39,543 nt of DNA from NCBI GenBank assembly GCA_963706025.1, contig CAVPLM010000016.1, forward strand, positions 1 through 39,543, in the 5' to 3' direction. Each line of letters starts with the position of its first letter. Positions within the stretch are counted from its first letter, which is position 1. The stretch is from an uncultured Actinomycetes bacterium. Lineage in GTDB: Bacteria > Actinomycetota > Thermoleophilia > RBG-16-64-13. A model generated the notes under the pieces. That model was not told the origin of the DNA and searched no databases. It saw only the letters and a list, made by a program, of their open reading frames with translations. A program made the position numbers and the translations under genes. Below are positions 18,500 to 39,503 of this stretch, piece after piece.

Positions 18500-19792
18500 G
18501 TGAGATATGGCCTGATCCGGCCGCGGATGCGTGTGCTCCGAGTTATCGTGGGGAGCTTCGCGCTGGCCTTCGCCCTGCTCTTGGCGCTGTCGGCTGTGGC
18601 CTCGGCTCAATCCTTTTCGGACGTCAGGGGAGACGAGTGGTTCGCCGAGGCTGTGGACGCACTGGCCGCGGAAGGGATCGTGAGCGGGCGCGACGACGGC
18701 TCGTTCGGACCTTCGGACCCGGTCACCCGGGCCCAACTGGCGGCGCTCCTGGCCCGCACTCTCGATCTGCAGGACTTCCCGTACACCCCGTTCATCGACG
18801 TCACCACCCAGGATTGGTTCTCCGGGCCTGTAGGCGCTCTCTATCAGACGGGTATCGTCTCCGGGACCGGCCCCATCACGTTCTCTCCCCAGCTGCCCGT
18901 CAGCCGCCAGCAAGCGGCTACTCTCGTCATGCGGGCACTGTCCTACACCCAAGAGAGTGAGCCGCCGGCCGAGGGAGACCACGTTCTACCCCCCGGTACG
19001 GCCGATCTCTGGCTGGCCGGTTTTCGCGACCGGGCTCTGATCGGGCCTGAGCACTCCGAGTCCGTCGCCAACGCCTATCGGCTGGGCATCATCGAAGGGG
19101 CTCCGGACGGCTGGTTCTATCCCTCACTGACCCTTACCCGAGCTCAGATGGCGGCCGTGCTCTACCGGGCCTTCCTGCAGCCGGTCGAGGCCAAGAACAC
19201 CTACCCGGTGGAGTTGGAGGCCTTGTCGTACTACCCGGCCCAGTCGGTTGGCTCAGAGGGGCCTCTCGTGTCTTTCCTGGAGTCCCGGCTCACGGCTCTC
19301 TGCTTCCCTTGTGGACCGGTCGACGGCGTCTACGACTACCGTACCAAGGACGCCGTGATGGCCTTCGAGAAGGCGGAACGGCTCAGCCGGGACGGCAAGG
19401 TCGGGCCGGAGGTCTGGCAGCATCTCTTCAGCGCCCAGACCCCCACGCCGCGTCTGGCGGCGGGTGGTGATCGGGTGGAGGTGGACATATCCCGGCAGAT
19501 CCTTCTGATGATCAAAGACGGCAAGGTGACCAAGGTGCTGCACGTGTCCACGGGCAAACTGGGCACTCCCACCGGTCATGGCAAAGTGCGCAGCAAGAGC
19601 CAAGGTTGGACCCATTGCCCCGTGGGGTGGATGTACTCACCGTCGTACATCATGCCCCACATCGCCATCCACGGCTACAAGAGCGTCCCCCCGTGGCCCG
19701 CCAGTCACGGGTGCGTCCGCGTGCCGGTGTGGACGGCCGACGAGCTGTACGACGAGCTGCCCCTCGGGCTCCCGGTGGACGTGTACTACTAG
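18500..19792 (+). CDS. Secreted S-layer-homology + peptidoglycan-binding + L,D-transpeptidase (YkuD) protein
   Basis: Signal peptide, SLH repeats (FSDV...GIVSG...FGP...TRAQ), PG-binding motif (GPVDGVYD..T..AV..F) and the catalytic HG...SHGCVR motif. Confidence 0.9.
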   Translation: MRYGLIRPRMRVLRVIVGSFALAFALLLALSAVASAQSFSDVRGDEWFAEAVDALAAEGIVSGRDDGSFGPSDPVTRAQLAALLARTLDLQDFPYTPFIDVTTQDWFSGPVGALYQTGIVSGTGPITFSPQLPVSRQQAATLVMRALSYTQESEPPAEGDHVLPPGTADLWLAGFRDRALIGPEHSESVANAYRLGIIEGAPDGWFYPSLTLTRAQMAAVLYRAFLQPVEAKNTYPVELEALSYYPAQSVGSEGPLVSFLESRLTALCFPCGPVDGVYDYRTKDAVMAFEKAERLSRDGKVGPEVWQHLFSAQTPTPRLAAGGDRVEVDISRQILLMIKDGKVTKVLHVSTGKLGTPTGHGKVRSKSQGWTHCPVGWMYSPSYIMPHIAIHGYKSVPPWPASHGCVRVPVWTADELYDELPLGLPVDVYY

Positions 19793-19820
19793 AGCCGAAC
19801 TGCCACGGTGGGACCACCAG
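19761..19820 (+). repeat. Left copy of ~60 bp direct repeat (3' end of the L,D-transpeptidase gene; attL-like)
   Basis: ccctcgggctcccggtggacgtgtactactagagccgaactgccacggtgggaccaccag matches 39445-39503 with 2 substitutions and 1 indel. Confidence 0.92.
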
Positions 19821-20102
19821 AGCGGAAAATACGGGGTCAGTAGACCGACGTCTTGGTGCGGTCTAGGGGCCCCACTGGTTTGACTGTGACAAAGACGTGC
19901 TGCAATTCGGCCCACGGGGGCGCCCCACCCGTAGCGACCTCCACCATCCCCTGTGCGGGAGCAAGAAGACATGCTCCCCCGGGGGCTTTGCGATGCATTC
20001 GAACGTCACGCCGCAAAAGCCATTGGTGTAGTTGGGTCTGTGATGTCGGACAGGCGCTCGTATCTTTGATGTCCCTCGCGACGCTAGATTCTGGCAGGCT
20101 TC

Positions 20103-21848
20103 CTATGCATCGATCCAGCCGTCCTCAGCCCAACCGCGCATGAGCCAATAACGACGTACGCGCGCTTCAAGTTCCTCCCGATCCAAAGCTGGGGCCCCGT
20201 CAATAGGGTCCCTAAAAAAGCGGTCGGCAACCGTGTCATCCGCGGGACTGAGACCGAAAGCGAAGTTGAGCCGTCGTATTCGGGTGGCAACATCTGTGCA
20301 GAGACTCTGTAGCTCTTGCTTGCTGACCGGGCTACCGTGGAGCTGGCCGACGACGGAAGCGATAGTGTCCCAGCTCATGAAATCGCGATAGAACCGGCAC
20401 ATGGTCAACGAGTCGAGCAGAATCATACGGTCCTCGAAGTCGATGTAGGTTCGGACATACGCCTCGTCGTCCATCCCGTCCAGGACTCCGCCCAGTTCCG
20501 GTTTGTAGAAGGTGGCGCGAAGGTGGCAGGCGCCGCGTACACTCACCGCGTAGCTCAAAGCCATGCCCTTGAGTCTGCGCGGGTCATAGCCGGCTGGGTC
20601 CAAACCTTTGGTCGTGACCGACCACTCGCTCATCCCGAAATACCGGGCGGCATGATCCATCCCTTCTGCAAGAACATCACCGAGAGGTGTGGAGCGATGG
20701 GCGATAGCGTCGAGAAGTACGCCTATCACCGCGGCGTCACCCCAGGCCGGACCATCATCTAGCAGGCCCAAATCCTTGCCCTTCATGGCCAGAGCGACCA
20801 GATTCCCGGTGCTCATCGTGTCAAGGCCTAGGTGATTGCAGCGTTCGTTGAGCTTAGCCACATCACGGGCATGGCGCACCATACATGATCCGCCAAAGAC
20901 GTAGAGCGTCTCGTACTCTGGCCCGTGCAACTCCCGGCCCGTTTCGGGCCCTTCGGTGAGGACAAGGCGCTTGCGACAGCGCATTGGGCACGGTGGACAG
21001 GTGTCGGTTTCGATCCTCGCCCAGTCCGGCCAGGTCTCAGCCTCCAGTTCGCGCCTGTGCTCAACGGTCCCCTTGCTGAAGAAACTGCCGGGGAAAGCAC
21101 CGGCCTCGTTCACTATGGCTACCATCATCGGCGTGCCGAAGCGGCGATAGTTGCCAGCCACCGGCGCCTCTGTCGCCAGTCTGGAGACCCCACGCCGCGT
21201 CGCTACGAAATCGTCTGAGGCGGCAAGCTTGAGCGGCCCGGAAGACGTCACCGTTATCGCCTTCAGCTTCTTGCTTCCCAGGACCGCTCCCATCCCTCCT
21301 CGGCCCAGGGTGTGAGCTTGTTCGTGCATCACGCTGGCAACCTTCACGAGGTTCTCCCCTGCCACGCCGATGGAGAGCACCGCAGACCGTTTGTCGAGTT
21401 GTGCCCACAGCCGGGCCTCGACATCGAATGTGTCGCGGCCCCAGAGGTCATCCGCGGGGAGGACGGTGGCGCCGTCTTTCGTGATGTGGACTCTCACCGG
21501 GCTGCCCGCGGCACCGGATATGACAACCGCATCCCATTCCGTCTCCCGGAGCGTGCGGGCGAATGTCCCGCCGCAGTAGCTCTCCAGCCAGATGCCGGTG
21601 AGAGGGCTCTTGGTGAACGCCCCGAAACGATCCGAGCCAGACATGCCGAAGGCAGCGATGGGGCTGGGGGTCAGTGCGACGATATTGCCGGGTTGGAGTG
21701 GCCCCACGTCGGGGTCGAGGTACTTCTCCAAGAGCCGCATGCCGAGCGCCTTTCCCCCGAGACCGAGCATCCCTGCCGTGTCGATGCGATCGACGCGAGA
21801 GCTGCGGGACGCGAGATCGACAACCAGCACGGTCCGCGTTTCGGTCAT
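20103..21848 (-). CDS. Aldehyde:ferredoxin oxidoreductase (W/Mo-pterin AOR family)
   Basis: KSPLTG, GRGGMGAVLGSKKLKAI, CPPCPMRC, GPEYET, LGLDTMSTG, RGACHL and DSLTMCRF motifs. Confidence 0.92.
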   Translation of the reverse strand: MTETRTVLVVDLASRSSRVDRIDTAGMLGLGGKALGMRLLEKYLDPDVGPLQPGNIVALTPSPIAAFGMSGSDRFGAFTKSPLTGIWLESYCGGTFARTLRETEWDAVVISGAAGSPVRVHITKDGATVLPADDLWGRDTFDVEARLWAQLDKRSAVLSIGVAGENLVKVASVMHEQAHTLGRGGMGAVLGSKKLKAITVTSSGPLKLAASDDFVATRRGVSRLATEAPVAGNYRRFGTPMMVAIVNEAGAFPGSFFSKGTVEHRRELEAETWPDWARIETDTCPPCPMRCRKRLVLTEGPETGRELHGPEYETLYVFGGSCMVRHARDVAKLNERCNHLGLDTMSTGNLVALAMKGKDLGLLDDGPAWGDAAVIGVLLDAIAHRSTPLGDVLAEGMDHAARYFGMSEWSVTTKGLDPAGYDPRRLKGMALSYAVSVRGACHLRATFYKPELGGVLDGMDDEAYVRTYIDFEDRMILLDSLTMCRFYRDFMSWDTIASVVGQLHGSPVSKQELQSLCTDVATRIRRLNFAFGLSPADDTVADRFFRDPIDGAPALDREELEARVRRYWLMRGWAEDGWIDA

Positions 21849-21902: not shown

Positions 21903-22419
21903 TCACGCGGTCACATATCCCTCATCGATGAGAATCTGCATCACCTTCTCGGCAGCCGTTCTCGTGACCACGGGGCAGTGCTCGGTGTGGCCGCCGGCCG
22001 CCACGAACGCGTCAAGCCCATCTTGGAAGTTCGTGTTGAACGAGCGGCCCATCAGTTTCTCCTGAACACCGCGACAGTCGATACTCCAGAAGGTCTCCTT
22101 GAAATGATTCGTCAGACGCTGTCCGAGCTCGAACGAGCGGAACATCTTCTCTTTGTCGGCCCACGAGTCAAGGTCTCGGCCGGAATATAGAACTAAGAAC
22201 CATCACACCACCCGATACGGCTCCGCAAACGTTCCCGGTGTTCGCGCAACCTCCGCAGAGACCAGTTGCGGACTTGAAAACCCCCTCATTGACCACGTCA
22301 TCGCCCATGACTTCCCTGAACGCCCCAAGGACCGCTTGAGCGCATCCCGAGTACTGCTTCTCGTTGTCATAGGCCAGTTTGCCTACTCTCTCGATCATTG
22401 CCTTCTCCGAATCCTTCAT
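21903..22419 (-). CDS. C-GCAxxG-C-C family putative redox protein; frameshift near 22175
   Basis: GCAQAVL...GLCGG...VCGAVSGG in the first ORF, and IDCRGVQ...EHCP in the second ORF. Confidence 0.8.
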
Positions 22420-22453: not shown

Positions 22454-22765
22454 TCAGCTTCCGAAGACCGTGTCTCCGCTCTTGTTGTCGATCACAGGCA
22501 GTCCATCGAAACGGATCGCGCCAACAGGGACTTCTCCGTTGACTGCCTCCGTGACCATGCCCAGACCGATATTGCCAAAGCCGGCACACAGTTCGAGCAT
22601 TACGCAACCCGCTGCAACGAGATCCTTCGCAACACTCATGGCGGAGCTATAGTCAGGGACCGCGACCACTTCGACCTCTACTCCGTCGGGTGATGGTTGT
22701 CTCATGCGGTGAACTGCCGGGTCGGCTCCCTTCGCTAAATAGATGTAGGCAAATCTGACTGCCAT
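22454..22765 (-). CDS. Small conserved protein (DUF6506-like)
   Basis: FAYIY...VVAV...AKDLVAAGCVMLELCAGFG...VPVGAIRF pattern, with an AAGGAGG RBS before ATG 22765. Confidence 0.65.
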   Translation of the reverse strand: MAVRFAYIYLAKGADPAVHRMRQPSPDGVEVEVVAVPDYSSAMSVAKDLVAAGCVMLELCAGFGNIGLGMVTEAVNGEVPVGAIRFDGLPVIDNKSGDTVFGS

Positions 22766-22832
22766 TCGGGTACCTCCTTGTTGATTATTACGTGGGTATC
22801 GCTGGCGCGACTTCGTTCGCATGTCGGTGTCA

Positions 22833-22945
22833 CTACGGGAGCCCGCCCCAGTATCTCCGGTAGAGAAGGTGGTCGTGTGTGTCCGCTCCGACCTCACCTG
22901 TGGAGAGGTCGACTCTCAGGACGTTCTGGTTGCAACCAAGAACAG
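22833..22945 (-). pseudogene. N-terminal stump of a third AOR gene
   Basis: GCNQNVLRVDLSTGEVGADTHDHLLYRRYWGG* aligns by eye with the N-terminus of the AOR at 32209 (GFHGKTLRIDLTTGRTWVDAHDETFYRRYWGG). Confidence 0.75.
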
Positions 22946-22992
22946 CTCCTGCGATCCTCGGCAGGATGTCTAGCGGAGTAGACCCATAACGT

Positions 22993-24017
22993 TCACGGAA
23001 CAAGCAAGATCTTCGCGCCTTCTTTGCCAACTGCCATCTCGAACGCCTCTTCCCATCTGCGGAGGGGAAGCACCGCAGAAACGAGAGTCTCGAGCGAAAG
23101 CGTTCCTCGTTCCATCAGCCTGAGGGCCCGATCCCACGAACTCGAGTTCGATCTGCAGCATCCGATCAACCGAATATCCTTGAGTACGGCCTGGTCCCAG
23201 TCGAACCCCACCGGTCTTCCGAAAAGGCCGAGTTGAACGAAGCTGCCCCGTCTTTCGAGAAGGTCGAGGCCGATCTGGACTGCTGGTGACGCACCGGAAC
23301 ACTCGATCACGAAGTCGACCTTGCCGCAGCCCAACAGATCGCCATGCTCTTCCGTGGTGTCGCCGTCCAGTTCGATGATCCGATCGGCACCCAGTTCGCG
23401 GCCGAGATCGAGCCGTCTTCTGTCGCTGCTGAGACCGGCCAATATGACCAGCGCGCCTTGGAGCTTTGCAAGCCGTGTACAAATGAGGCCGATGGGGCCA
23501 GGGCCAGTTATCAATACGCGATCGGCCGCCTTGATGCACACTGCTTCTCTTGGATGGCCTTGACGCAGCAGGCCACGGGTTCGGCGAGGGCCCCTACCTC
23601 GAAACTGACTCCGGGTGGCAGATGCCTGACAACGTGGGCAGGCAGAACCAAGTAAGGGGCGAACGCGCCATCCAGACCGCTGCCGAAAGACAGGCGTTCT
23701 TCGCACAGCGCAGGTTCGCCATTGAGGCAGTGTGGACAACGCCCGCACGTGTGGGCGAACGGGAGTGCGGTGACATGATCGCCGACGCGAAACTCGTCCA
23801 CCCCCGCACCCGCCTCGACGATTTCTCCTGCCATTTCATGACCAAGAACCACCGGCGGGCTGTACGGGTACTCGTCACGCATGATGTGAATGTCCGTCCC
23901 ACAGACTCCTGCTGCCTTGACAGCGATCTTCACGGAGCCTGGGATCACCTGAGGCTCTGGTATCTCTCGTAGCTCCAGTTTGCCCGGACCGCTGGCGTAT
24001 TTGACAAGACCCAGCAT
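22993..24017 (-). CDS. Zinc-dependent alcohol/polyol dehydrogenase (MDR family); frameshift near 23545
   Basis: GVCGTD, LGHE, CGRCPHCLNGEPALC, EPVAC and GPGPIG motifs. Confidence 0.88.
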
Positions 24018-24058
24018 GATGTCGCCGCCTAGAATGACCTGGGGATTTGCGCAGTAGC

Positions 24059-25162
24059 CTACGGAATGGCCACGCCGCTTTCGGCATCAAATAGGTGAGC
24101 TTGGCCAAGATCGAAGCCCACGTAGACTATTTCGCCTATATCGGGCCTGAGAGCGGCGTCCGCCCTGATCTTGACGGTCTGCTCTCCGATCTTCACCGTC
24201 ACGTGCGTCTCACGTCCAACGATCTCCGCGAGGTAGACCTCGCCTGAGATCGGGGCGTCTGGATGCGGGCTACTGGCGAATCGGGTATCTGCGGGACGCA
24301 CTCCCAGGAGAACGTTGGGCGATGGAGCGGACTTCGCTCGCCTCAGTAGGCCACCCTCGAGGGGCAGTTGTACCCCGTCAAGGGCAAAGTAGGTGTTGCC
24401 GTCTGCGGCCGTCAGCGAGCCTTCCATAATGCTCATGGGAGGATCACCCAGAAAGCCGGCCACAAACCGGTTGGCGGGCCTATCGTAGACGTCCTCCGGT
24501 GTTCCGATCTGCTGGACCACACCGTGATTCAGGACCGCGATCAAATCAGCCATCGAGAGAGCTTCAGCTTGGTCCGGTGTTGCGTAGATCGCAGTCGTCC
24601 CGAAGTCCTTCTGCATGCGCTTCAGCTCAGCGCGCATCAGATAGCGCAGCTTGGCATCCAGGTGAGCAATGGGCTCGTCCAGAAGGAACACCTGCGGCTG
24701 CCTCACGAGGCTGCGGGCAAGCGCGACTCTCTGTTTCTGTCCACCACTCAATTCGTTTGGTCGCCGCTCGAGGAGTTCATCGATCTGCAGCATGCCCGCT
24801 ATGTGTTCGACTCGCTCTTTTGTCTGGGCGCGGCTGTACTGCTTCTTCCTTCCTGGAGATCGAAGTGGAAAGGCCACGTTGTCGAACACCGAAAGGTGCG
24901 GGTAAAGCGCGTAGTTCTCAAAAGCCAATGCGACGTCGCGAAATCGCGGTTCGAGCTGGCTAACCGGGCTGGCGCCGATATGGATTTCGCCATCGTCAAT
25001 CTCTTCCAGGCCAGCGATAGAACGCAGTATCGACGTCTTCCCTGCTCCTGAGGGACCGAGAATGAACAGGAAACACTGGTCCGGGCAAGTGATCGTCACG
25101 CCGTCGAGGGCCTTGACCCGCCCGTAGGACTTCGTAACATTCTGGAGCTCTACGCTCGCCAT
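24059..25162 (-). CDS. Sugar/polyol ABC ATP-binding protein (MalK-like) with non-canonical H-loop
   Basis: GPSGAGKT, LSGGQKQRVALAR and LLDEP motifs. YATPDQ replaces YVTHDQ. C-terminal TOBE-like region. Confidence 0.92.
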   Translation of the reverse strand: MASVELQNVTKSYGRVKALDGVTITCPDQCFLFILGPSGAGKTSILRSIAGLEEIDDGEIHIGASPVSQLEPRFRDVALAFENYALYPHLSVFDNVAFPLRSPGRKKQYSRAQTKERVEHIAGMLQIDELLERRPNELSGGQKQRVALARSLVRQPQVFLLDEPIAHLDAKLRYLMRAELKRMQKDFGTTAIYATPDQAEALSMADLIAVLNHGVVQQIGTPEDVYDRPANRFVAGFLGDPPMSIMEGSLTAADGNTYFALDGVQLPLEGGLLRRAKSAPSPNVLLGVRPADTRFASSPHPDAPISGEVYLAEIVGRETHVTVKIGEQTVKIRADAALRPDIGEIVYVGFDLGQAHLFDAESGVAIP

Positions 25163-25192
25163 AGTTCGTACATCCTCTGTTCTTGGCTTTGT

Positions 25193-26293
25193 TCAGGCCA
25201 GAAGATTAGTTCCGTTGCTTTCGTCAAAGACGTGGACTCGAGACATATCTACTTCGAGGGCCACCTGTTCATCCTGTCCCCCGAGGCGTCGCGGATCCGC
25301 TGCCGCAAGGACCGGTTGCCCACCTATTTCCACTTCCACCTCGGCGCGGTCTCCGAGAGGCTCCCAAGCTATCGCGCGACCGGAGATCGTGCCGGCCTCT
25401 CCGTAAGGACCGGTGCACACGTTCAGGTCAATGGACCGGACACCAAGCACCACATTGCGACACGACGCTCCGCATACCTTCGTTGTCATCTCGCCATCAA
25501 GCAGCAGCGAGAACCCCTCACCCACAAGCCTAGCCTGACCGTTTTCTGTGGATAGCTCGCACCGCAACATGTTCATGGGGGGCGAGCCGATGAAGCCGGC
25601 CACGAACATGTTCGCCGGATGATCGAATAGCTCGAAGGGCTTGCCGACCTGCTGGAGCACGCCCAGGTTCATGACGGCGATCCTGTCGGCGATAGCCAGG
25701 GCCTCGAGCTGATCGTGTGTAACGTAGATGGTGGTGGCTTTCGTGGTGATGTGAAGACGCCTGAGCTCGCCTCGCAAGTCGATCCTCAGTTGGGCGTCCA
25801 GGTGCGAGATAGGTTCATCCATCAGAAACACGGCAGGTTCGCGGACGATGGCTCGCCCGATGCCCACTCTCTGCTTCTGGCCTCCACTCAAACCACGAAC
25901 TCGTTTGGGGAGAAGGTCGACGATAGCAAGCACCTTGGCTGCATGCATGACCCTCTCTTCGATCATCGCCTTTGGCATGCCGCGGGCTACGAGAGGTGTG
26001 GCCATGTTCTGCCGGACGGTCATGTGGGGATAGAGAGCATAGTTCTCAAAAATCATGGCGATGTTGCGGTCTCTCGGGGGTACTTCATTGATCAACTGGT
26101 CGCCGATGTAGATCTCGCCCGAGGTAACGGACTCGAGGCCGGCCACCATGCGCAGCGTGGTCGTCTTGCCGCATCCAGACGGCCCTATCAGGCAAAGGAG
26201 TTCACCGTCCTCGATATCGAGATCGAGGCTCTTTACCGCCTCGACAGACGTGCCGTAGGTCTTATAGAGACCCTTGATACTGATGTTGCTCAT
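25193..26293 (-). CDS. Sugar/polyol ABC ATP-binding protein (MalK-like)
   Basis: GPSGCGKTT, LSGGQKQRVGIGR, LMDEP and YVTHDQ motifs, with a GGAGG RBS before ATG 26293. Confidence 0.93.
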   Translation of the reverse strand: MSNISIKGLYKTYGTSVEAVKSLDLDIEDGELLCLIGPSGCGKTTTLRMVAGLESVTSGEIYIGDQLINEVPPRDRNIAMIFENYALYPHMTVRQNMATPLVARGMPKAMIEERVMHAAKVLAIVDLLPKRVRGLSGGQKQRVGIGRAIVREPAVFLMDEPISHLDAQLRIDLRGELRRLHITTKATTIYVTHDQLEALAIADRIAVMNLGVLQQVGKPFELFDHPANMFVAGFIGSPPMNMLRCELSTENGQARLVGEGFSLLLDGEMTTKVCGASCRNVVLGVRSIDLNVCTGPYGEAGTISGRAIAWEPLGDRAEVEVEIGGQPVLAAADPRRLGGQDEQVALEVDMSRVHVFDESNGTNLLA

Positions 26294-26312
26294 CGTTTGT
26301 CTTCCGCCTCCC

Positions 26313-27240
26313 TCACTTGACAGCACCGAAGGTGAGACCTCTTACCAGGTACTTCTGCAGTATGAACGTGAATATGAGGATCGGGAGGACAGCCACGAAG
26401 GCAACAGCCATAAAAGTGCCCCAGTCGATCCCCATAGAGGTTGAGAATCCGGTAATACTCACGGGGATGGTCTTCGCCTGGGTTCGGGTAAGGATCAGCG
26501 CGAAAAGGAATTCATTCCAGGAGAATATGGCCGAGAATACCGCGACGGCGGCGAGGCCGGGTTTCACCAGGGGCAAAGCCACTCGCAGAAAGACCTGCAG
26601 GCGACTGTAACCATCCACGAGCGCAGATTCCTCGAGTTCGCGCGGGATCTCGAGGAAGAAACCCCTGAGAAGCCAAACCGAGAAGGACAAGGTTCATAGC
26701 GACGTAGAGACAATAAGCGCGATATGGGTGTCCAGCAGCCCAAGCCCCGACATCAGTACGAACATCGGGACGATGAAGGCTATGGGCGGAGCCATCCTGG
26801 TTGACAGTATCCAGAAGGATAGATTACTACTCCCACGGAACTTGTACCGCGCGAGACCATAGCCGGCCGTGGCGCCGAACACCACCGATACGATCGTGCT
26901 CCCCACGACCACGATGATACTATTGACCAAGAACGGCAACTGGCTTGTACCCGCGTTCAAGGAACGCTTTTTATAGTTATCCAAGGTCGGCTCGAAAAGC
27001 CAGACCGGCGGGCTGGCAAAGATGTCGACCTGGGTCTTCAGAGAGGTCAGAAGAGATCACCACCAGTGGAAAGAGGCAGAAGCACAGGAATAGCACGGCC
27101 ACTGCATAGAGCGCGAGTCTTCCAGCCAGTGCCCCTGCGGCGGGGGCCTTGGCGACCGCCACTCGGCTGGAACCGCCCTCGATACGTCCGAGGCCATTGA
27201 TCACTGTAGGTTCAGGATCGAATCCGGTGTCCTTGTTCAT
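26313..27240 (-). CDS. Carbohydrate ABC permease (MalG-like), frameshifted twice
   Basis: NSIIV..AGYGLARY, ELEESALVDG (EAA loop) and FSWNEF segments lie across three frames. Confidence 0.85.
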
Positions 27241-27265
27241 CGAGCAGACCTTCCTATGACTGTTT

Positions 27266-28171: not shown

Positions 28172-28191
28172 TCCTATTTCCTTTCTGGACC

Positions 28192-29875: not shown

Positions 29876-29906
29876 ATGTATACCGCATACCTAATACCAA
29901 ATGCAA
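29876..29906 (-). promoter_or_regulatory. Promoter/operator of the ABC-ADH operon
   Basis: atgtataccgcatacc-N9-atgcaa has the same layout as 32241-32271. It reads TTGCAT-N18-TATACA on the minus strand. Confidence 0.65.
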
Positions 29907-30284: not shown

Positions 30285-32209
30285 CGAAGGAGAAGCTCAC
30301 GCGCCGCATCGTTGACCCGTTCGATCTCGGGAACCAGCCATCCGAGTTCCAGCTCCCACAGCTTCTCGGGAGTGGGGACGCCTGTGTCCCGGTCCCAACC
30401 GCACAGGCGGTAGTAGAGCCCCTTCATCGCCTGGAAGGTCTCTCTATCAAGGTGCTTACCAGCGAGGACGCCCGCTGGGAGTGGCTCGAAGAACCGGTCG
30501 GGCAGGGTCTCGTCGTCAGCGCTGATGCCCTCCCGGGCGTTGAAGCATCGCGCCATGACTGTCCGCTTTTCCCCCAGCTTCATCAGTTCATAGAGACTGA
30601 CCTCTCTCCCGGTCGCTGCGCTCAGAATGCTGGTGATGTCCGCGAAGGTAAAACTCCTGACCGGGGCCGCTACAAACACGCACATACAGAGTGCATCAAG
30701 GAAACTGAAGTGCTGCGAGAGCACGTAATGCATCCGCACTTTCTGCTCGTCCAGAACCACGGAGTCCAGACGCTCGTAGATACCCAGCGGAAGAGCCTGT
30801 TGCAGGAAGATCTCGGGCGCGTCGAAGTCGAAATCACAGTCATGCTCGACCCTGATGTGATCGGCCCCGATATCGGAGGTGGAATAAGAGAGGTACAGCA
30901 TTCCCTTGCCGCGCGGGTCATGTAGTGGAGCTTCTTGCTTCTTGCTGACAATGGCGTATTGCTGCGTGTCATTGCCCACGATCCCAGCCGCACGATGCGC
31001 CCCTTCGGCAAGCACGTCGCCGAACCCCCGACGGAACGCGATGGCCTCGAGTGTTTCGAGCAACCCCGCCTCGCTGCCGAAGGTAAGGTCCAGCCCGCCG
31101 GTGTCGGCCGGGGAGAGGAGACCCCGCTGGCTGCACTCCATGGCCCAGGCTATGGTGCCACCCGCAGAGATGCTATCCAGACCATACTTGTTGCAGAGTT
31201 CGTGCCCTTTGGCGACGGCCTCAGCATTCCAGATATCGAGATTCGAACCCAGCGCTCCGATAGTCTCGTATTCCGGCCCGCCGTACGTCGGGTCTACATG
31301 GTAGGGTTCTCCCGTCTGCACGATGGGCTTGCAGCCGACCGCACAGTGCCAGCAGGTTCCGTGACCGGTCATGATCGTCTCTTTGAAGGTCTCGCCAGAG
31401 AGCCGATCAGCGTTTTCGTACCAACCGGCCTGAAAGTTCCTGATGGGCAGCATGCCCCTGACGTTGTTCGCGTTCACGTAATAGCCGGTGCCGATCGCCT
31501 TCAGATTCGAGTTGTCAGGATTTGTCCTGATGCGCTCCGCGAAGAGCTTGTTGCGGCGCCGTATCTCATCCTGGTCCGCGAGGGGAAGCCCGACAGTACC
31601 CCGCACCGCGATGGCCTTCAGGTTCTTCGAGCCGAACACGGCCCCCGCCCCGCTGCGTCCATTCACGTGATGTCTATCCGTGACCACACAGGCGAATCTG
31701 ACCAGGTTTTCGCCGGCAGGCCCGATGCAACAGATGCGGGCCTTGGGTTCCTGGACCTCTTGCCTTATCTGCGTCTCGGTGTCCCCTGTACTAAGACCCC
31801 ATAGGGAGCGGGCATCGCGGATATCGACCTTCCCGTCCTGTATGTAGACGTAGACGGGTTGGCCTGCGCGGCCCTCGATCACGATCCCGTCCCAGCCTGC
31901 GTGGCGGAGTTCAGGACCGAAGAAGCCGGCCGCCTGACTGTCGATCAGCGCGCCCGTGAGCGGAGATTTCGCTTGAATGCTGTAGCGATTGAAACCGGAT
32001 GCGGGGATTCCTGCGATGCCGGCGGAGATGCACAGAACGTTATCGGGACCGAGAGGGTCGATGCCTGGTGACGACTCTCTGAGGAGGTAGTAGATGCCTT
32101 GGCAAGCTCCGCCCCAGTAGCGTCGATAGAATGTCTCATCATGCGCGTCGACCCACGTCCGACCAGTTGTCAGGTCGATTCTTAGAGTCTTGCCGTGGAA
32201 GCCGTACAT
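30281..32209 (-). CDS. Aldehyde:ferredoxin oxidoreductase (W/Mo-pterin AOR family)
   Basis: MYGFHGKTLRIDL, KSPLTG, GRSGAGAVFGSKNLKAI, CWHCAVGC, GPEYET, YGLDSIS and DALCMC motifs, with a GGAGG RBS. Confidence 0.93.
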   Translation of the reverse strand: MYGFHGKTLRIDLTTGRTWVDAHDETFYRRYWGGACQGIYYLLRESSPGIDPLGPDNVLCISAGIAGIPASGFNRYSIQAKSPLTGALIDSQAAGFFGPELRHAGWDGIVIEGRAGQPVYVYIQDGKVDIRDARSLWGLSTGDTETQIRQEVQEPKARICCIGPAGENLVRFACVVTDRHHVNGRSGAGAVFGSKNLKAIAVRGTVGLPLADQDEIRRRNKLFAERIRTNPDNSNLKAIGTGYYVNANNVRGMLPIRNFQAGWYENADRLSGETFKETIMTGHGTCWHCAVGCKPIVQTGEPYHVDPTYGGPEYETIGALGSNLDIWNAEAVAKGHELCNKYGLDSISAGGTIAWAMECSQRGLLSPADTGGLDLTFGSEAGLLETLEAIAFRRGFGDVLAEGAHRAAGIVGNDTQQYAIVSKKQEAPLHDPRGKGMLYLSYSTSDIGADHIRVEHDCDFDFDAPEIFLQQALPLGIYERLDSVVLDEQKVRMHYVLSQHFSFLDALCMCVFVAAPVRSFTFADITSILSAATGREVSLYELMKLGEKRTVMARCFNAREGISADDETLPDRFFEPLPAGVLAGKHLDRETFQAMKGLYYRLCGWDRDTGVPTPEKLWELELGWLVPEIERVNDAARELLLR

Positions 32210-32240
32210 CCGTCCTCCCGAATCACGAATGTGATAGAGC

Positions 32241-32271
32241 ATGTATACCGCATACCCCATACATAATGCAA
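32241..32271 (-). promoter_or_regulatory. Promoter/operator in the AOR-gntR divergent region
   Basis: atgtataccgcatacc-ccatacata-atgcaa, whose first 16 bp are identical to 29876-29891. Confidence 0.65.
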
Positions 32272-32360
32272 GTGGCTTTTCTTCAGCGACTGACTGCGGT
32301 AGACTTCAGCAAGGGAACAAACGCCACAGACCGCGAGTGACCATTCCTGGGAGTGAGGCC

Positions 32361-33176
32361 TTGAACGAGAACCCTGTTACCGGCGACCTGATAGATCAGA
32401 AGACCCTTGCTGAAGCCGCACGCGAGAAGATAAGGGAAGCAATCCTGCAAGGGAGGTTCGAGCCAGGGAAGAAGCTAGACCAGGCGATGCTGGCCCGAGC
32501 ATATGGAATAAGCCGCATGCCCATTCGCGATGCCCTTCGCGCGCTTGAGCGCGACGGCTTCGTGGCTCTGGATTCCCGCCGGGGGGCTTCAGTGGTGGAT
32601 GTCGACCCGAAGGAAATGGCGCAGCTGTACGAAATCAGAGAGGTAGTCGAGATGCTGGCCGCGAAGCAAGCCGCACCTCGCATCACAGATGAAGATCTTG
32701 AAGGCCTGAGAGACCTCTCTAGGCGGATGGAGGAAGCCAATTCCGTCGGTGATACGGCGCGCTTTCTGCAGCTGGATCACGACTTCCACCTGGCTGCGTA
32801 CCGGGCCTGCGAGAACGTTCCATTGCTGAGAATCGTCGGTGATCTCATAAACTCTACTTGGATCTACCGCATCGCTGCGACGCGGCAAGCTCGCGATCGC
32901 GCGGCGTATCAGAGCGAGCATGGTGAGATCATCGACGCACTAGTGGCGAGAGACTGCCGGCTCGCATGTCGGCTGGTCAAACAGCACCTGCGGCAAACGG
33001 AGCGAATCATCGGCCATGGACACAAGGGTAGCCGTCCGAAAGATAACCATGAGGCCATCGCCGACCAGCCGAAACCCCGTAACATCCAGGAAGAGAGGTC
33101 GCACCACAGTGTCTCCCGAGCGAGCCAAAGTGCGGACTTGCACAGGATCGGACGCCGCGCTGGCTCGCCCGAATAA
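32361..33176 (+). CDS. GntR-family (FCD) transcriptional regulator
   Basis: IREAILQGRFEPGKKL...LARAYGISRMPIRDAL HTH and FCD motifs (D..FH, EH..I...L..RD). The start is uncertain (TTG 32361 or GTG 32337). Confidence 0.9.
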   Translation: MNENPVTGDLIDQKTLAEAAREKIREAILQGRFEPGKKLDQAMLARAYGISRMPIRDALRALERDGFVALDSRRGASVVDVDPKEMAQLYEIREVVEMLAAKQAAPRITDEDLEGLRDLSRRMEEANSVGDTARFLQLDHDFHLAAYRACENVPLLRIVGDLINSTWIYRIAATRQARDRAAYQSEHGEIIDALVARDCRLACRLVKQHLRQTERIIGHGHKGSRPKDNHEAIADQPKPRNIQEERSHHSVSRASQSADLHRIGRRAGSPE

Positions 33177-33402: not shown

Positions 33403-33780
33403 TGAACCGCTCCGGGTTCGGTAGAGACTCGTTTGTTTGAGTCCCGCCTCTCCGGCCGAGACTCTTCCGCAGCATCTCTTCCGGCTGCGCCGGTGGCATG
33501 TGACTGATCGTTGTGATACTCGACGGTGATTGAGCCAACCGACTCATTCCAGCGTCGCGTATTCCACTTCGCCCGGAGTCTTCCAGGGGCCTCGCTTTCT
33601 GATGACTTCGGTCACCCTTAGAAGGCCGATGATGGTTTCGGTGAGAGCGTTGTCGCGCGAATCCCGACGAGAGCCGACGGGAGTGACGGCGCCGGCCCCA
33701 GCCTCGGCCAGGCGTTCGGTGTGGCTGATGGAGAGGTATCGTGCTCCAACACCAGACGCACGGCCCGCTCCCGTATCTCC
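33403..33780 (-). mobile_element. Degenerate IS3-family (IS51/IS6110-like) remnant: right end plus OrfB C-terminus
   Basis: YLSISHTERLAEAG...VGS..DSRDNALTETIIGL..TEVIRKRGPWKT..EVEYATLE. The terminal IR tgaaccgctccgggttcggtagagactc at 33403 resembles IS6110-type TGAACCGCCCCGG...GAGACTC ends. Confidence 0.85.
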
Positions 33781-33902
33781 TGTGGTTACCTCGCTTATAT
33801 GCTCATGCTCCAATCCTCTTCCATAAGAGGCGAGCATTTCATTCCATCTAAAGAGTTCGAGCCTCCCACATCGACTGCGAGAAGATGCTCGGGTCGATTC
33901 GA

Positions 33903-34099
33903 TTGACCGCCCACCGGCTCCGTGCTATAAACTGCGTGTACGGTATACGCCCGGGCGCGCGCCGACTTCAGTCAGGACAGCCGCCCCTAGCGGAGCACTC
34001 TCGCTCCAATAGTCCGGGCACAGCGATCTCTTGACAAGGGGAAAGATACGGTTATAGTTGTATACCGTGTACGGTATGTGTTGAAGTGTGCGGTATAGG
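33903..34099 (+). promoter_or_regulatory. Tandem sigma70-like promoters with operator motifs upstream of the dehydrogenase operon
   Basis: TTGACC-17-TATAAA (33903-33931) is followed by gtgtacggtatac. TTGACA-16-TATAGT (34031-34058) is followed by the palindrome ATACCGT-GT-ACGGTAT (34062-34077). A further gcggtata lies near 34090. Confidence 0.7.
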
Positions 34100-34231
34100 G
34101 CAGCCCGAGCACCACATCGAGGGGCGGCTCCTCGATTCGAGCCTTGGCGGTCTTGGGGACTCCCGGTTTCGCAGCACAAGCCGCGGGTGATTGATGTCGA
34201 CCAAGAAGATCTGATGAGGGAGGTTGCGGCA

Positions 34232-35239
34232 GTGGAGCTCACCAAGAAGCGTCTACTCGAGATGTACCGAACCATGGTCAGGATTCGGCGATTCGAGGAG
34301 AAGATCGTGGAGATGTACGCCGAAGGCACGATGCCCGGTCTCGCTCACCTCTACAACGGTGAGGAGGCGGTAGCCGTGGGGGCGTGCAGCGCTCTCAACC
34401 CCGACGACTACATCACCAGCACCCACAGGGGCCACGGGCATCTGATCGCCAAAGGCGGCAAGACGGACTTGATGATGGCCGAACTCTTTGGTCGTGAAGC
34501 CGGATACTGCAAAGGAAAAGGCGGATCGATGCACATCGCCGACCTCGATCTCGGTATTCTCGGCGCCATGGGCATCGTGGGGTCTGGCCTTCCCATTGCG
34601 GTGGGCGCTGGATACTCCGCGTACTTGCGCAAGTCAGGCCAGGTATGCGTCGCCTTCTTCGGAGATGCGGCCTCCAACATCGGAGCAGCGCACGAGTCTC
34701 TCAATCTTGCCGCCGTCTGGAAGCTCCCGGTGGTCTTCGTGTGCGAGAACAACGGATATGGCATTTCGGTGTCCCAGAAACGGCACCAAGCCATCACCGA
34801 CATCGTTGACAGGGCCCCTGGGTATGGCATGCCGGGGGTCATAGTCGACGGGAACGACGTGGTCGCGGTGCACCGGGCCGTATCTGAAGCAGTTGAGCGA
34901 GCAAGGGCCGGCGAGGGCCCCTCGTTGATCGAGTGCAAGACGTATCGAATGCGCGGTCACTTCGAAGGAGACCCGGGTCGCGGAATGCGCTACCGATCAA
35001 CGGAAGAGATCCAGCTTTGGGATTCGCCAGAGAAGGACGCCATCGCTCGTTTCGGCGCTGAGTTGGTGAAATCCAAGAAAGCGACGCAAAAGGAGCTGGA
35101 TGACATCCTCGCCGAAATCGCAGCAGAAATAGAAGCTGCTGTGGTCTTCGCGAAGGCGGCGCCGTTCCCCGACATGACTGAGGGTATGGAAGACGTCTAT
35201 AGCGCCGAGTATGCGCACTTGGCCCAGACCGGGCTCTAG
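34232..35239 (+). CDS. TPP-dependent acetoin/2-oxoacid dehydrogenase E1 alpha (AcoA/PdhA-like)
   Basis: HLYNGEEA, STHRGHGH, GKGGSMH, FGDAA..N and ENNGYG motifs. GGGAGGT RBS before GTG 34232. Confidence 0.92.
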   Translation: MELTKKRLLEMYRTMVRIRRFEEKIVEMYAEGTMPGLAHLYNGEEAVAVGACSALNPDDYITSTHRGHGHLIAKGGKTDLMMAELFGREAGYCKGKGGSMHIADLDLGILGAMGIVGSGLPIAVGAGYSAYLRKSGQVCVAFFGDAASNIGAAHESLNLAAVWKLPVVFVCENNGYGISVSQKRHQAITDIVDRAPGYGMPGVIVDGNDVVAVHRAVSEAVERARAGEGPSLIECKTYRMRGHFEGDPGRGMRYRSTEEIQLWDSPEKDAIARFGAELVKSKKATQKELDDILAEIAAEIEAAVVFAKAAPFPDMTEGMEDVYSAEYAHLAQTGL

Positions 35240-35281
35240 CTCGCTCGAAACTTCGTTTGGTCACAGCAAGGAGTACAGAGG

Positions 35282-36259
35282 ATGAGAACCATTTCCTATA
35301 GCCAGGCGGTCCGAGAGGCCTTGCGGGAAGAGATGCTTCGGGACCCCAGCGTCATCATGTTCGGTGAGGACTGCGGACCCTACGGGGGGATCTACGGCGT
35401 AAGTGGGGACCTGCGCGAGCAGTTCGGCGAAGAACGAGTTCGCGACACGCCCATTTCGGAATCGGCGATCGTGGGCTGCGGCATAGGAGCAGCCATGACC
35501 GGAATGCGTCCAGTCCCGGAAATCATGCAGACGGACTTCTTCGGGGTCTGCCTGGACCAGATCGCCAACCAAGCGGGCCAGATCCGGTACATGTTCGGGG
35601 GCAAAGCCCGGCTGCCCCTGGTGATCCGGACCGCGGAAGGTGCCGGCCGCGGAGCAGCCGCCCACCATTCCCAGTGCCTGGAAGCCTGGATCCTGCATTC
35701 CCCCGGCCTCCTTCTGGTGATGCCCGCCACCCCCTATGATGCCAAGGGTCTCTTAAAGACCGCCATCCGGGGCGAGGACCCGGTGGTTTTCATCGAGCAC
35801 AAGATGCTCTACCGCACCACCGGACCGGTGCCGGACGAGGGGGAGGAGTACACCATCCCCTTCGGGGTGGCCGCGGTTCCCCGAGAGGGCACGGATGTCA
35901 CCGTGGTGGCCATATCGGCCATGGTGCCCAAGGCGCTCGCGGCGGCCGAGAAGTTGGCTGAGGAGGATGTGAGCGTTGAGGTTATTGACCCGCGCACAAT
36001 AAGACCCCTGGATCTTGACCGGATTTGCGAATCGGTTCGTAAGACCCATAGGGCGGTCATCGTTCATGAAGCTCGCAAGACGTGCGGCATAGGGGCGGAG
36101 ATCGCCTCGCGGATAACGGAGAACGTCTTTGACTACCTTGATGCCCCGGTGGCGCGCGTGTGCGGGTGGGACACTCCCGTTCCCTTCAGCCCGGTGCTCG
36201 AGAAGGCGTTCATCCCCGACGAGAACGACATCGTTAGTGCCGTCCGCGGACTCCTTTAG
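35282..36259 (+). CDS. Dehydrogenase E1 beta (AcoB/PdhB-like)
   Basis: FGEDCG..GG, RVRDTPISE, AAHHSQ, DAKGLL and EVIDPRT motifs. Confidence 0.93.
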   Translation: MRTISYSQAVREALREEMLRDPSVIMFGEDCGPYGGIYGVSGDLREQFGEERVRDTPISESAIVGCGIGAAMTGMRPVPEIMQTDFFGVCLDQIANQAGQIRYMFGGKARLPLVIRTAEGAGRGAAAHHSQCLEAWILHSPGLLLVMPATPYDAKGLLKTAIRGEDPVVFIEHKMLYRTTGPVPDEGEEYTIPFGVAAVPREGTDVTVVAISAMVPKALAAAEKLAEEDVSVEVIDPRTIRPLDLDRICESVRKTHRAVIVHEARKTCGIGAEIASRITENVFDYLDAPVARVCGWDTPVPFSPVLEKAFIPDENDIVSAVRGLL

Positions 36260-36268
36260 GGGGCAATC

Positions 36269-37661
36269 ATGGCGACCAGAGTGAATGTGCCCTATATGGG
36301 ACTCACCACCGAAGAAGTCACGGTGACTGAGTGGCTGAAGCAGGAGGGAGAGGCCGTCGCCAAGGGCGAGTCGATTGTGGAGGTGCTCACCGACAAGGTG
36401 AACAATGTGGTCGAAGCCCCCGAAGCCGGGGTGCTGCTCAAGATCGTGGCTCCCGCGGATACAGTCGTCCCTGTCGAGGGTGCCCTCTGCTGGATCGGCG
36501 AGGCTGGGGAGGAAGTGCCCGATAAGGAGGCAGCTGCGACCGCCGTGCCTGGCGAGGAACGGGCCGATGCCACCAAGCCCGCGGAAGCCGTGGCGACCGT
36601 GGCCGCCCAGTCGGTCGGGAGCGGCGAATACGTGAAGGCCTCTCCCGCGGCCAAGCGGGCGGCCCGCGAGCGGGGCGTCGATCTGGCTCTGGTCACCGGC
36701 ACCGGTCCCGGGGGCCGGGTGACCGAAGACGATGTGGCCACATACGGAGAAGAGCAGGCCCCTGCCGGCACGGTCCGGGCCACGCCCCTAGCCAAGAAGC
36801 TGGCCGCTGAGTCCGGAGTGGACCTGGCCGGCGTGTCAGGCACCGGGGTTAACGGCCGCATCCGCGGAGCCGATATCGTGGCCGCGGGGGCGCCGGCTGC
36901 CGGGCCGGCCCCTGCCGACGTGGGCTCCGCCACCCGAGCGGGTCTGCCCCTCGCCCCGGCAGAGATCGCCTCCGTGGTGCCCATGGCCGGCCTGCGTCGG
37001 ATCGTCGCCCAGAGGATGTTCCAGAGCGCCCGGACCATCCCCCGGGTCACGCACACCACCGAAGTGGACGTCACCGAAACGGTGCGGATGCGCGACTGCT
37101 TGCTGGCCCGGGCCGAGAGCCAGGGCGGGGTACGTCCCTCCTACACCGACATCGTGGTCAAGATCACGGCCCAAGCATTGCGCGAGCACCCCCTGATGAA
37201 CGCCCGAGTGGCCGAGGAAGAGATCCAGGTGCTGGACGCGGTCAACGTGGGGGTGGCGGTCGCGGTTGCCGACGGCCTGGTGGTCCCGGTGATCCACGAC
37301 GCCGACCTCAAGGGTGTGCAGGCTATAGCCGAGGAGTCGCGGGACAAGATCGAACGGGCCCGGGCCGGTACGCTGGTTGCCGACGATGTGACCGGTGGCA
37401 CCTTCACGGTCACCAACCTGGGCACCTACGAGATCGATGCCTTCACCCCCATCATCAACCTTCCCGAGGCGGGAATCCTAGGGATCGGCCGCATCGTCAA
37501 GAAACCGGTGGTTGTGGACGGCCAGATCGCGATCCGTTCGATGATGTACCTGAGTCTGACCTTCGACCACCGCGATCATCGACGGAGCCCCGGCCGCAGC
37601 CTTCTTGCGCACCATCAAGGGGTACCTAGAGAAGCCTTACGAGCTTCTTGCGGTGCGCTGA
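36269..37661 (+). CDS. Dihydrolipoamide acyltransferase E2 (one lipoyl domain, two E3-binding domains); frameshift near 37574
   Basis: TDKV lipoyl lysine, ASPAAKR..GTGPGGR and ATPLAKK..GTGVNGR subunit-binding domains, TFTVTNLG. The shifted frame restores DHRIIDGAPAAAFL...* at 37661. Confidence 0.9.
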
Positions 37662-37721
37662 CGCGATCAAACACATTCAACTGCATCCGGAAGTCGGGCC
37701 CGACCCCGAGAGGAGCCTGCT

Positions 37722-39154
37722 TTGGTAACGACTGATTTGGCCATCATCGGCGCCGGCCCCGGCGGATATGTGGCCGCCCTGCGCGCCGCCCAGTTGGGGA
37801 TGAAGGTGACCGTAATAGAGAGTACCCATCTGGGCGGCATCTGCCTGAACCGAGGGTGTATTCCCACCAAGGCTATGCTGCATACGGCCGCCGTCGCTCA
37901 CGAAGTTCGGCAGGCGGGCTACCTACGGGGTGATCGTCAAGGGGGAGCCGCGCATCGACTACGCGGCTGCTCTTAAGCGCCGCGAGGACGTGGTCGCGGG
38001 GCTCCGCAGCGGGGTGCGCACCCTGCTCAGGCAGGGCAAGGTGGAGGTCCTGGCCGGGCGCGCTTCGTTTGTTGGGCCGCGCACGCTGGTTGTCGAGCCG
38101 GTCGAGGCCGATATCGGCGCCGGCAAAGGCGTGGTGCTTGGCGCCCAAGAGACGGTGGAGGCCGCCCACATTATGGTGGCGACCGGTTCGAAGCCGGCGG
38201 CCCTGCCCATTCCGGGCGTCGATCATCCCCGGGTGATCGACTCGGACGGAGCCCTTGCCCTCACGAAGGTCCCGGCCAGCCTGCTGGTGGCGGGCGCTGG
38301 GGCCGTGGGCTGCGAGTGGAGCCTGATCTTCGCCCGTCTGGGTGCCAAGGTCACCCTGGTCGAGATGCTGCCGGAGGTGCTGCCCCGGGAAGACGCCGAC
38401 ATGGGCAAGGTGCTGGCCAAAGCCTTAAAAGGCGAGGGGGTCACCGTCCACACCGGCACTTCCGTCACGGCGGTCAGGGAGAAGGGCGGTGAGCTCGAGG
38501 TTGAGCTTTCAGGCCAGTCTACGAGCATCGTCGCTGCCGACTACGTTCTCGTCGCGGCCGGCCGGGCGCCTCTCATCGACGGTCTAGCCCTGGAAGCTGC
38601 CGGGGTCGCGACCGACCCCAAAGGCTGGATTCTCGACCGACCCCTATCAGAAGACCAACGCCCCGTCGGTTCTTGCCGTCGGGGACGTCACCGGTCGGGC
38701 GCTTCTTGCCCACGTAGCCTCGAGGCAGGGGATCGTGGCGGTGGAGAAGCTGGCCGGGCTTTCTCCGGAGCCGGTCCGCGATGACCGCATCCCTTCCGTC
38801 ACCTATACCGACCCGGAAGTCGCGAGCGTGGGACTCACCGAGACGCAGGCCCGGGAGACGGGCCTCCCAGTGGTCGTCGGCACGTTCCCCTTCTCCGCTT
38901 CCGGTCGGGCTCAGGCCCAGGGCGCGGACACCGGACTGGTGAAGGTGGTGGCCGAATCCGGGTTTGGCCGGGTTCTCGGGGTGCACATGGTCGGCCCTCA
39001 CGTGGGCGAGTTGTTAGCCGAAGCTGTCCTGGCGCTGGAACTCGAGACCACTCTGGACGAGCTGTCGTCGGTCATCCGCGCGCATCCCACACTCTCGGAG
39101 GCTCTGGGTGAAGCTTCCCTGGCGGCGGCAGGCCGGGCGCTGCACTCGACCTAG
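37722..39154 (+). CDS. lpdA: Dihydrolipoamide dehydrogenase E3, frameshifted twice
   Basis: [41 protein letters not shown] and HPTLSE motifs across three frames. Confidence 0.88.
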
Positions 39155-39191
39155 GAGGAGGGCACAGGAGACCATAACCATCGAACGCCAC

Positions 39192-39476
39192 ATGCCCGTC
39201 CGCAGACTGACCCTGGAGGAAGGCCCGATTCAGCCCCCCTCGGTGGCGGCATCGCCGCACCACGTCTCTGCTTCTCCCCGAGCGCGCGCTCATGCCGCAG
39301 CCCTGGGGATCGATTTTGCCACTATTGCCCTGAGTGGCGATCGGATCAGCAAGCCAGACGTGGTTCTTGCGGCCGGCGCCGCTCCTCAGCATGTGCCAGG
39401 CGCGCGACCAACCCCCCCGGCGCGCGCCTGGCTGCTGAACTGGTCCCTCGGGCTCCCGGTCGACGTGTACTACTAG
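39192..39476 (+). pseudogene. E3-binding-domain (E2-like) fragment fused in frame to the duplicated L,D-transpeptidase C-terminus
   Basis: ASPRARAHAAALGIDFATI...RISKPDV resembles a peripheral subunit-binding domain. The ORF ends LGLPVDVYY*, identical to the 18500-19792 protein end. Confidence 0.55.
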
Positions 39477-39503
39477 AGCCTAACTGCCACGGTGGACCAC
39501 CAG
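39445..39503 (+). repeat. Right copy of the direct repeat (attR-like)
   Basis: ccctcgggctcccggtcgacgtgtactactagagcctaactgccacggtggaccaccag, followed by a gggccgc/gcggccc hairpin at 39517-39535. Confidence 0.92.

Follow-up and report, generated by a model that had tools for sequence, protein, structure and literature searches.

The window analysed here is the complete contig C16 (39,543 nt) of G000, a metagenome-assembled genome (MAG) of an uncultured sediment bacterium, which comprises 30 contigs and 3.66 Mb at 92.3% completeness and 7.3% contamination. On the plus strand, at 18500..19792, the window carries the gene of a 430-aa L,D-transpeptidase with three SLH domains, a PG_binding_1 domain and a YkuD domain (Pfam SLH 6.7e-37, PG_binding_1 2.7e-12, YkuD 1e-15). 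The end of this gene is present a second time close to the end of the contig, and between the two copies lie 19.6 kb, here called the island. This report addresses what the island carries, how it relates to the empty form of the locus, and by which route it may have come to lie behind a cell-wall gene.

The repeated gene end and the empty site

The left copy of the repeat (19761..19820, plus strand) consists of the final 29 coding bases of the transpeptidase gene, its TAG stop codon (19790-19792) and 28 bases downstream, and the right copy lies at 39445..39503 on the same strand; by position they are attL-like and attR-like, and both were located by alignment, blastn-short and a repeat search. 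The copies are alike at 57/60 positions, with 2 mismatches and one 1-base gap in 60 columns (95%, E 2.7e-18 by blastn-short against the 3.66-Mb assembly), and their similarity ends sharply at both edges. The repeat search of the window recovers an ungapped core of 51 nt at 96%; a local 160-nt pair (3535/3719) aside, no other direct repeat there exceeds 38 nt or 87% identity. The original prediction, which described about 10 codons, a stop and about 28 bases recurring some 19.7 kb further on, was therefore accurate in this respect. Its proposal that the drift between the copies marks an older event does not stand: the 3 differences are given no weight, because indel and mismatch noise in the contigs of this assembly is comparable.

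In the assembly, the 60-mer occurs twice on C16, once on the sister contig C17 (7102-7162) and at the extreme end of the sister contig C15, the latter two being allelic positions. Among 61 genomes of the family, 53 contain some match at E<=1, with matches longer than about 40/65 query bases found at only 4 places, all in G000; in the other family genomes, the conserved coding part alone was matched. The 60-mer is not a dispersed repeat, a possibility that had been raised with the original prediction. Contig collections of metagenomes and of genomes, both possibly lacking the source genome, gave no exact match to the 23-nt core of the repeat. Orthologues of the transpeptidase gene, at 76-81% nucleotide identity, are present in G001 and G003, both from the genus of the source genome, and in G019 from its family. 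Nothing corresponding to the 28 non-coding bases of the repeat stands in the spacers of G001 and G003, and the site in this form is therefore species-specific.

C16 1-19824 aligns with C15 8538-28278 at 98%, then 91% identity, and C16 12709-19826 aligns with C17 1-7168 at 94% overall and at 98-100% over 17545-19826. Beyond the transpeptidase stop and the common bases ending in CCACCAG, C16 continues into the island, whereas C17 continues, past the same point, into the sequence that trails the right copy in C16. That trailing sequence is the right flank, 39504..39543 on the plus strand, which runs to the contig end and resembles C17 7163-7199 behind the transpeptidase gene (16 nt at 100% and 26 nt at 92%). 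The three relatives were examined over about 33-35 kb each around the orthologous gene, with 13-15 kb taken from the side of the gene and 20 kb from downstream of it. In all three, the upstream side is collinear with C16 and the 20 kb downstream with C17 7175-27100, and no match to the island is found. At the empty site, a short spacer separates the transpeptidase stop codon from that of a class-III aminotransferase gene, which is convergent with the transpeptidase gene; CinA comes next. The 19.6 kb are regarded as an insertion because C17 and 3/3 relatives pass from the transpeptidase stop directly to the aminotransferase gene, which bears out the claim of insertion against an empty site, and none of the relatives carries the interior genes in synteny in place of that site. 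Judged from these alignments, the empty arrangement is evidently ancestral, and the 19.6 kb are evidently an addition in the C16 haplotype.

The block bears one of the marks of a genomic island in that it is found in a single lineage, while close relatives show the site empty (C17, G001, G003 and G019). None of 40 relatives searched together with G000 carries the block contiguously, and these 41 genomes gave only single-gene matches of 65-74%. A second mark, a mobility gene or tRNA at the border, is missing, as the window holds no tRNA or tmRNA (0 by ARAGORN) and no integrase, and a relic of an insertion sequence (IS) of the IS3 family is internal only.

Could the right copy instead be the remnant of a deleted tandem paralogue of the transpeptidase gene, with the block between the copies never having been an inserted unit? 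Paralogues of this gene do exist in the genome, on C12 and C13, at about 70%. The similarity, however, halts at 39445, with nothing gene-like upstream at the DNA or protein level; the identity of the supposed remnant to the adjacent gene is 95%, not the roughly 70% of the paralogues; and 3/3 relatives have one gene, then the aminotransferase. Such an origin is very improbable. A terminator-like hairpin behind the right copy had also been put forward as a sign that this copy is the displaced original end. The hairpin is present in the 40-nt flank (-32.1 kcal/mol) and is weak (z = -0.88), since 36/200 shuffles fold equally well and no T-run follows, so that it cannot mark the original copy.

Some further features of the contigs are recorded here. 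The window begins within a short dispersed repeat (1-33), of which 20-33 nt recur at 95-100% at dozens of sites on C3, C5, C11, C20 and other contigs, often as close inverted pairs. The 160-nt pair consists of direct copies at 3535-3694 and 3719-3878 (91%, with 184 nt between their starts) in the spacer that separates the gene of a PucR-type regulator from that of glutamine synthetase, and has no Rfam match; the whole window likewise gives 0 Rfam matches at the gathering score. On C17, downstream of the empty site, a tandem run of several paralogous units, each about 2.6 kb long and with 74-82% mutual identity, extends over about 21900-42300.

A mosaic metabolic cargo

The cargo of the island is metabolic and mosaic, consisting of a left module of foreign composition, an IS3 relic and a host-like operon. 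The original prediction passed over this mosaic make-up and the IS3 relic, and likewise the place of the right copy at a contig end. The left inner end (19821..20102) is non-coding and has no homologue elsewhere in G000; it includes a terminator-like site on the minus strand (19849-19836, by terminator scan), placed 3' of the first gene. This gene (20103..21848, minus) encodes an aldehyde:ferredoxin oxidoreductase of the AOR family, AOR1, with 581 aa (Pfam AFOR_C 7.3e-87, AFOR_N 8.3e-57). It is accompanied on the same strand by a small open reading frame (ORF) at 21903..22145 with a weak match to the redox protein family C_GCAxxG_C_C (E 2e-4, 21.9 bits, under the Pfam cut-off of 27), by a DUF6506 protein gene at 22454..22897 (Pfam 8.2e-25), and by a Zn-dependent alcohol dehydrogenase (ADH) at 22993..24017. 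The latter is read as two overlapping ORFs, with ADH_N (2.4e-29) at 23511-24017 and ADH_zinc_N (5.5e-22) at 22993-23748, and the frame break near 23511-23748 is probably assembly noise.

Transporter components follow on the minus strand. Two ABC-transporter ATPases of the UgpC/MalK-like type with TOBE domains occupy 24059..26326 (ABC_tran 2.1e-28 and 3.7e-31; NCBIfam UgpC subfamily 2.7e-112, under its cut-off), and two ABC permeases occupy 26313..28171 (BPD_transp_1 8.6e-17 at 26313-26690 and 2.6e-20 at 27266-28171). The first permease (26313-27240) is read as three ORFs, and its part at 26694-27240, which has no Pfam match, presumably belongs to it. The solute-binding protein (28256..29770, minus; 504 aa, with a TAT-like signal) matches SBP_bac_1 at 7.4e-32. 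In 400 other genomes of the class, this protein has one match at E<=1e-30, with 28% identity, and as a query it has no match in genome or metagenome contig collections, from which the source genome is possibly omitted. Its Atlas look-alikes, which serve as a lead only, are binding proteins for polyols or carbohydrates, most of them with a Chloroflexota label.

The left module is completed by a second aldehyde:ferredoxin oxidoreductase of 659 aa (30281..32260, minus; AFOR_C 2.6e-115, AFOR_N 8.9e-70) and by a GntR/FCD-family regulator on the plus strand (32241..33176; FCD 1.3e-27, GntR 2.1e-16). A 31-nt motif detected by the repeat search lies in both promoter regions (29876..29906 and 32241..32271, 87%) and may be a putative operator of this regulator. 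Taken together, the left module, with its binding-protein transporter, Zn alcohol dehydrogenase, two aldehyde oxidoreductases of the tungsten type and GntR regulator, looks like a catabolic unit, putatively for a polyol or alcohol. Its 13.6 kb have a GC content of 0.594 against a genome median of 0.643, which places them in the 1st-3rd percentile when ranked with 709 background windows of 5 kb, and their tetranucleotide distance is at the 93rd-97th percentile. Atypical composition, a further mark of genomic islands, is thus displayed by the left module, which is probably of foreign origin, while the right 5 kb are host-like (GC 0.650). The composition check suggested with the original prediction therefore sets off the left part of the block and not the right.

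At 33403..33819 (minus), on the border of the foreign left module and the host-like operon, lies the IS3-family element. It is internally deleted, retaining the C-terminal ~95 codons of orfB and a 79-nt end piece without a transposase domain. The two pieces have DNA matches in many relatives, at 70-74% and 90%, where they stand 0.84-2.1 kb apart with the ALIL frameshift pseudoknot (RF01497) between them. In G006, the copy encodes HTH_Tnp_1 and HTH_21 + rve proteins, and the relic ORF is 64% identical to the tail of the G006 orfB over 70 aa (BLASTP, E 3e-23). A full IS3-family element would have orfA, orfB with rve and the frameshift signal; the stretch in the window is a relic only. A structured RNA or group II intron was also considered for 33403-33819 and was rejected in favour of the IS3 relic on the strength of the ALIL- and rve-bearing copies in relatives and of the BLASTP match; a search of 33100-34100 gave 0 Rfam matches at E<=1.

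The right module is an operon for a 2-oxoacid dehydrogenase of the pyruvate/acetoin type (34088..39154, plus), with genes for E1 alpha, E1 beta, E2 and E3 (E1_dh 3e-91, 2-oxoacid_dh 2e-70, Transket_pyr/Transketolase_C). E3, with Pyr_redox_2 and Pyr_redox_dim domains, is read as three ORFs. The operon is 88% identical at the nucleotide level (77% for E3) to an operon of the same genome on C3 (566188-569586), which adjoins the GAPDH, PGK and IclR genes. It is at most 72% identical to any relative searched, and the host's own C3 operon is closer. Mismatches between the island and C3 operons fall at codon positions as 142/82/421, third positions being the most frequent, and the island operon is, on this comparison, evidently a genuinely diverged second copy of a host-type operon. 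E3 is separated from the right repeat copy by a non-coding spacer of 290 nt (39155..39444), which has a sub-threshold E3_binding match (E 0.0035) and no homologue in G000 or among PDB sequences.

Routes of entry and the state of the junctions

The best explanation, held tentatively and at slightly less than even confidence, is that of a 19.6-kb horizontally acquired, strain-variable and cargo-only island, resembling a cis-mobilizable element (CIME) and integrated behind the transpeptidase gene by conservative recombination across the 60-nt site. A circular DNA bearing its own copy of the site would recombine conservatively with the chromosomal site, which would be composed of the last 10 codons, the stop and the 28-nt spacer of the transpeptidase gene. 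The target gene would remain intact, and one copy of the site would be left on each side, as attL and attR. The usual catalyst of such conservative recombination is a tyrosine or serine recombinase; here, the enzyme would be a site-specific recombinase that was either lost from the island or never encoded there, and a related integrative element could move the island in trans. Conservative recombination between circle and chromosome is favoured because the gene is intact, a copy of the site stands on each side, the edges are sharp and the empty site is single-copy. No terminal inverted repeats were found between the inner ends (scores 17-18 against a shuffle mean of 18.5), and in place of the paired elements of a composite transposon there is a single internal IS relic, with no direct or inverted similarity of the inner ends above shuffles.

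The restriction of the full repeat to this locus, the empty site, the probably foreign left module and the right junction seen in short-read contigs count in favour of this explanation, and so does the absence of mobility enzymes from C15, C16 and C17: six-frame searches of G000 returned 8 matches to Phage_integrase, 0 of which are on C15, C16 or C17, no match to Resolvase above the cut-off and no match to rve. Pfam scans of the picked island ORFs (>=80 aa) gave metabolic genes, a regulator, the IS3 relic or no family. The island was thus correctly called integrase-less, as no tyrosine or serine recombinase is found on the block, only the dead IS3 relic. Other observations weigh against the explanation, and they concern the machinery as well as the junctions. 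The check for integrases beside other copies of the 60-mer, as suggested with the original prediction, yielded neither a cognate integrase nor a related integrative element having this site, whether in G000 (92% complete) or across 60 genomes of the family, and the island ORFs scanned include no remnant of a module for conjugation, mobilisation or excision. With regard to the junctions, the contig ends 40 nt beyond the right copy, and these 40 nt are all that identifies the right flank. At the transpeptidase locus, the MAG mixes at least three haplotypes, and its contamination is 7.3%. The left junction rests on C16 and on the 4 terminal bases of C15, which terminates 4 bases past the left copy with bases of the filled type, 2/4 of them discriminating between the filled and empty forms.

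Public short-read contigs bear on both junctions. They were taken from the best four sediment-metagenome runs (X1-X4), which belong to two studies, contain about 0.2 of the sampled words, and are of uncertain independence from the source sample; on C16, the bins 22879-24212 and 26214-28881 are nearly uncovered, and these gaps carry no weight. The right junction, running from E3 through the spacer into the repeat, is covered by record 24 of X3 (1023 nt; 38538-39511), record 16 of X2 (38814-39495) and record 31 of X4 (38929-39474), so that this join exists outside the present assembly. At the left junction, none of the listed pieces crosses 19745-19868. Record 9 of X2 (509 nt) places 279 letters on 19869-20150, while its other 230 fit nothing in the stretch, and contigs of X1, X2 and X4 and one contig of X3 share the same break at about 19868; these, too, count against the proposed integration. 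The AOR1 flank continues differently in those samples, and either the module is sited elsewhere there or the left end of C16 is wrong. An empty-site or circle joint was not seen among the 15 joints listed of 43.

An alternative is that the arrangement is an artefact of assembly or strain mixture, in which one or both junctions exist in no single genome, the island comes from elsewhere or from a relative binned with this genome, and the contig was fused or cut off where a short sequence is shared. The window being an entire contig with its right copy so near the end, the end of C15 exactly at the left copy, the contamination of the MAG and the divergence of the short-read contigs within the left end of the island all speak for it. 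So does the density of single-base indels: the alignment of C16 with C17 over 7.1 kb shows 343 mismatches and 39 indel events, the latter mostly single-base, within genes and outside homopolymers. Split genes are found in C16 (ADH, permease, E3 and a flanking PGDH), in C17 (the transpeptidase gene itself, L027 5840-7133) and apparently in the C3 operon (L029 6192-8306). Single-base indels splitting many genes across the assembly look like long-read consensus noise. The two frame breaks in E3 coincide with single bases (37920 and 38633/38635) that the short-read contigs omit, and the split genes are accordingly read as consensus errors and not as decay, because the assembly is rich in single-base indels and the bases at the E3 breaks are missing from the short-read contigs. 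A codon-position mismatch test of C16 against C15 and C17 gave a mixed and partly frame-ambiguous outcome and is given no weight in telling error from divergence there.

An artefact would nevertheless have to account for a join of E3, spacer and repeat that recurs in 3 runs of 2 studies, for a right end that is 88% identical to C17 and 95% to the left copy, unlike a simple graph overlap, and for a left junction lying mid-contig in 39.5 kb. The contig ends also fit an island-bearing path. The order of contigs in the graph is C11 (reversed), then the C15/C16 variants, then C17, with one assembled copy of the C17 flank, and this fits an island path merging into a collapsed C17 flank. We consider an artefact unlikely.

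The main rival reading is a real insertion without any site-specific recombinase. Here, circular or linear DNA would enter through the ~60 nt of homology in a RecA-type (Campbell-like) event. The block would then pass between strains through homologous exchange within the conserved flanks, much like the contents of a flexible-genomic-island hot spot next to a fast-evolving surface-protein gene. The absence of a recombinase on the island and of a cognate element agrees with this route, as do the mosaic cargo, whose modules meet at an IS relic, and the hypervariable locus with its three assembled haplotypes. In addition, the transpeptidase allele of C15 (26973-28278) is 51-71% identical to window 18300-19826 over 18.3-19.5 kb and 94% identical in its last 125 nt, a switch that suggests a recombination breakpoint within the 3' end of the gene. 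The route leaves unexplained, however, how the donor gained a sharp-edged copy of exactly the gene end and spacer. Moreover, homologous recombination would have only a short substrate in 60 nt, and the donor would necessarily be a close relative, as the 28 non-coding nucleotides of the repeat are species-specific. Entry of this kind is possible but doubtful. A bolder extension, by which the 60-nt segment would serve as a portable address by which recombinase-less cargo moves into and out of this surface-protein locus, handled by host enzymes only (RecA or a chromosomal recombinase), with the island as one instance of a widespread and undescribed class, is improbable in our estimation.

Relation to known integrative elements

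If the integration across the 60-nt site is accepted, the locus is a clean case, found in nature, of the filled and the empty form within one population, and a catabolic module with transporter, alcohol dehydrogenase, tungsten-type aldehyde oxidoreductases and a spare 2-oxoacid dehydrogenase would have been gained at a cell-wall gene without a self-encoded recombinase. The end of an L,D-transpeptidase gene would then join the known target sites of islands; among the papers listed by a full-text literature search, none is on this gene as such a target by title or abstract. The original prediction called the target unusual, which overstates the matter, as insertion at the 3' ends of protein genes, trmE for example, is standard for integrative elements according to PMC8409611. 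The island is one more case in the open question of how cargo-only islands move, and by itself it establishes no new mechanism.

The additive flexible genomic islands of aquatic bacteria usually stand beside tRNA genes and carry integrases. The present island shares with them a strain-variable block at a fixed spot beside a diverging surface-protein gene, being itself mosaic with an IS relic. It differs in having a protein gene as its site, a 60-nt duplication and no integrase. SGI1 at trmE stands for the mobilizable islands inserted at protein-gene 3' ends (PMC8409611); here too, insertion at the 3' end of a housekeeping or cell-envelope gene leaves that gene intact and flanking repeats behind. 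Islands of the SGI1 type encode their own integrase and mobilisation functions, both of which the present island is without.

The closest likeness is to CIMEs, defined in PMC5704250 as elements without their own integration or transfer genes that retain attL and attR. Those of Streptococcus and other Firmicutes, described there as decayed integrative and conjugative elements (ICEs) or integrative and mobilizable elements (IMEs), resemble the island in that their direct repeats take in the target gene's 3' end, they lack genes for an integrase or for transfer, and they carry cargo only. In the window, att-type direct repeats do stand where the target gene ends, and Pfam searches of the picked ORFs together with six-frame recombinase searches found no integration or transfer genes inside. 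Descent from an ICE or IME is a different matter, and one that adds to the case against the favoured explanation, as only metabolic genes, a regulator and the IS3 relic are found. Unlike for CIMEs, no related ICE or IME sharing the site of the island was found in G000 or in 60 family genomes, and the island has no relic of an ICE or IME backbone; its host is an uncultured sediment bacterium, and its target is the gene of an SLH L,D-transpeptidase. Because neither a backbone relic nor a cognate element was found, the island is said to work like a CIME rather than to be one. Its architecture is of a known kind, that of a real but fairly ordinary island in a noisy multi-strain assembly.

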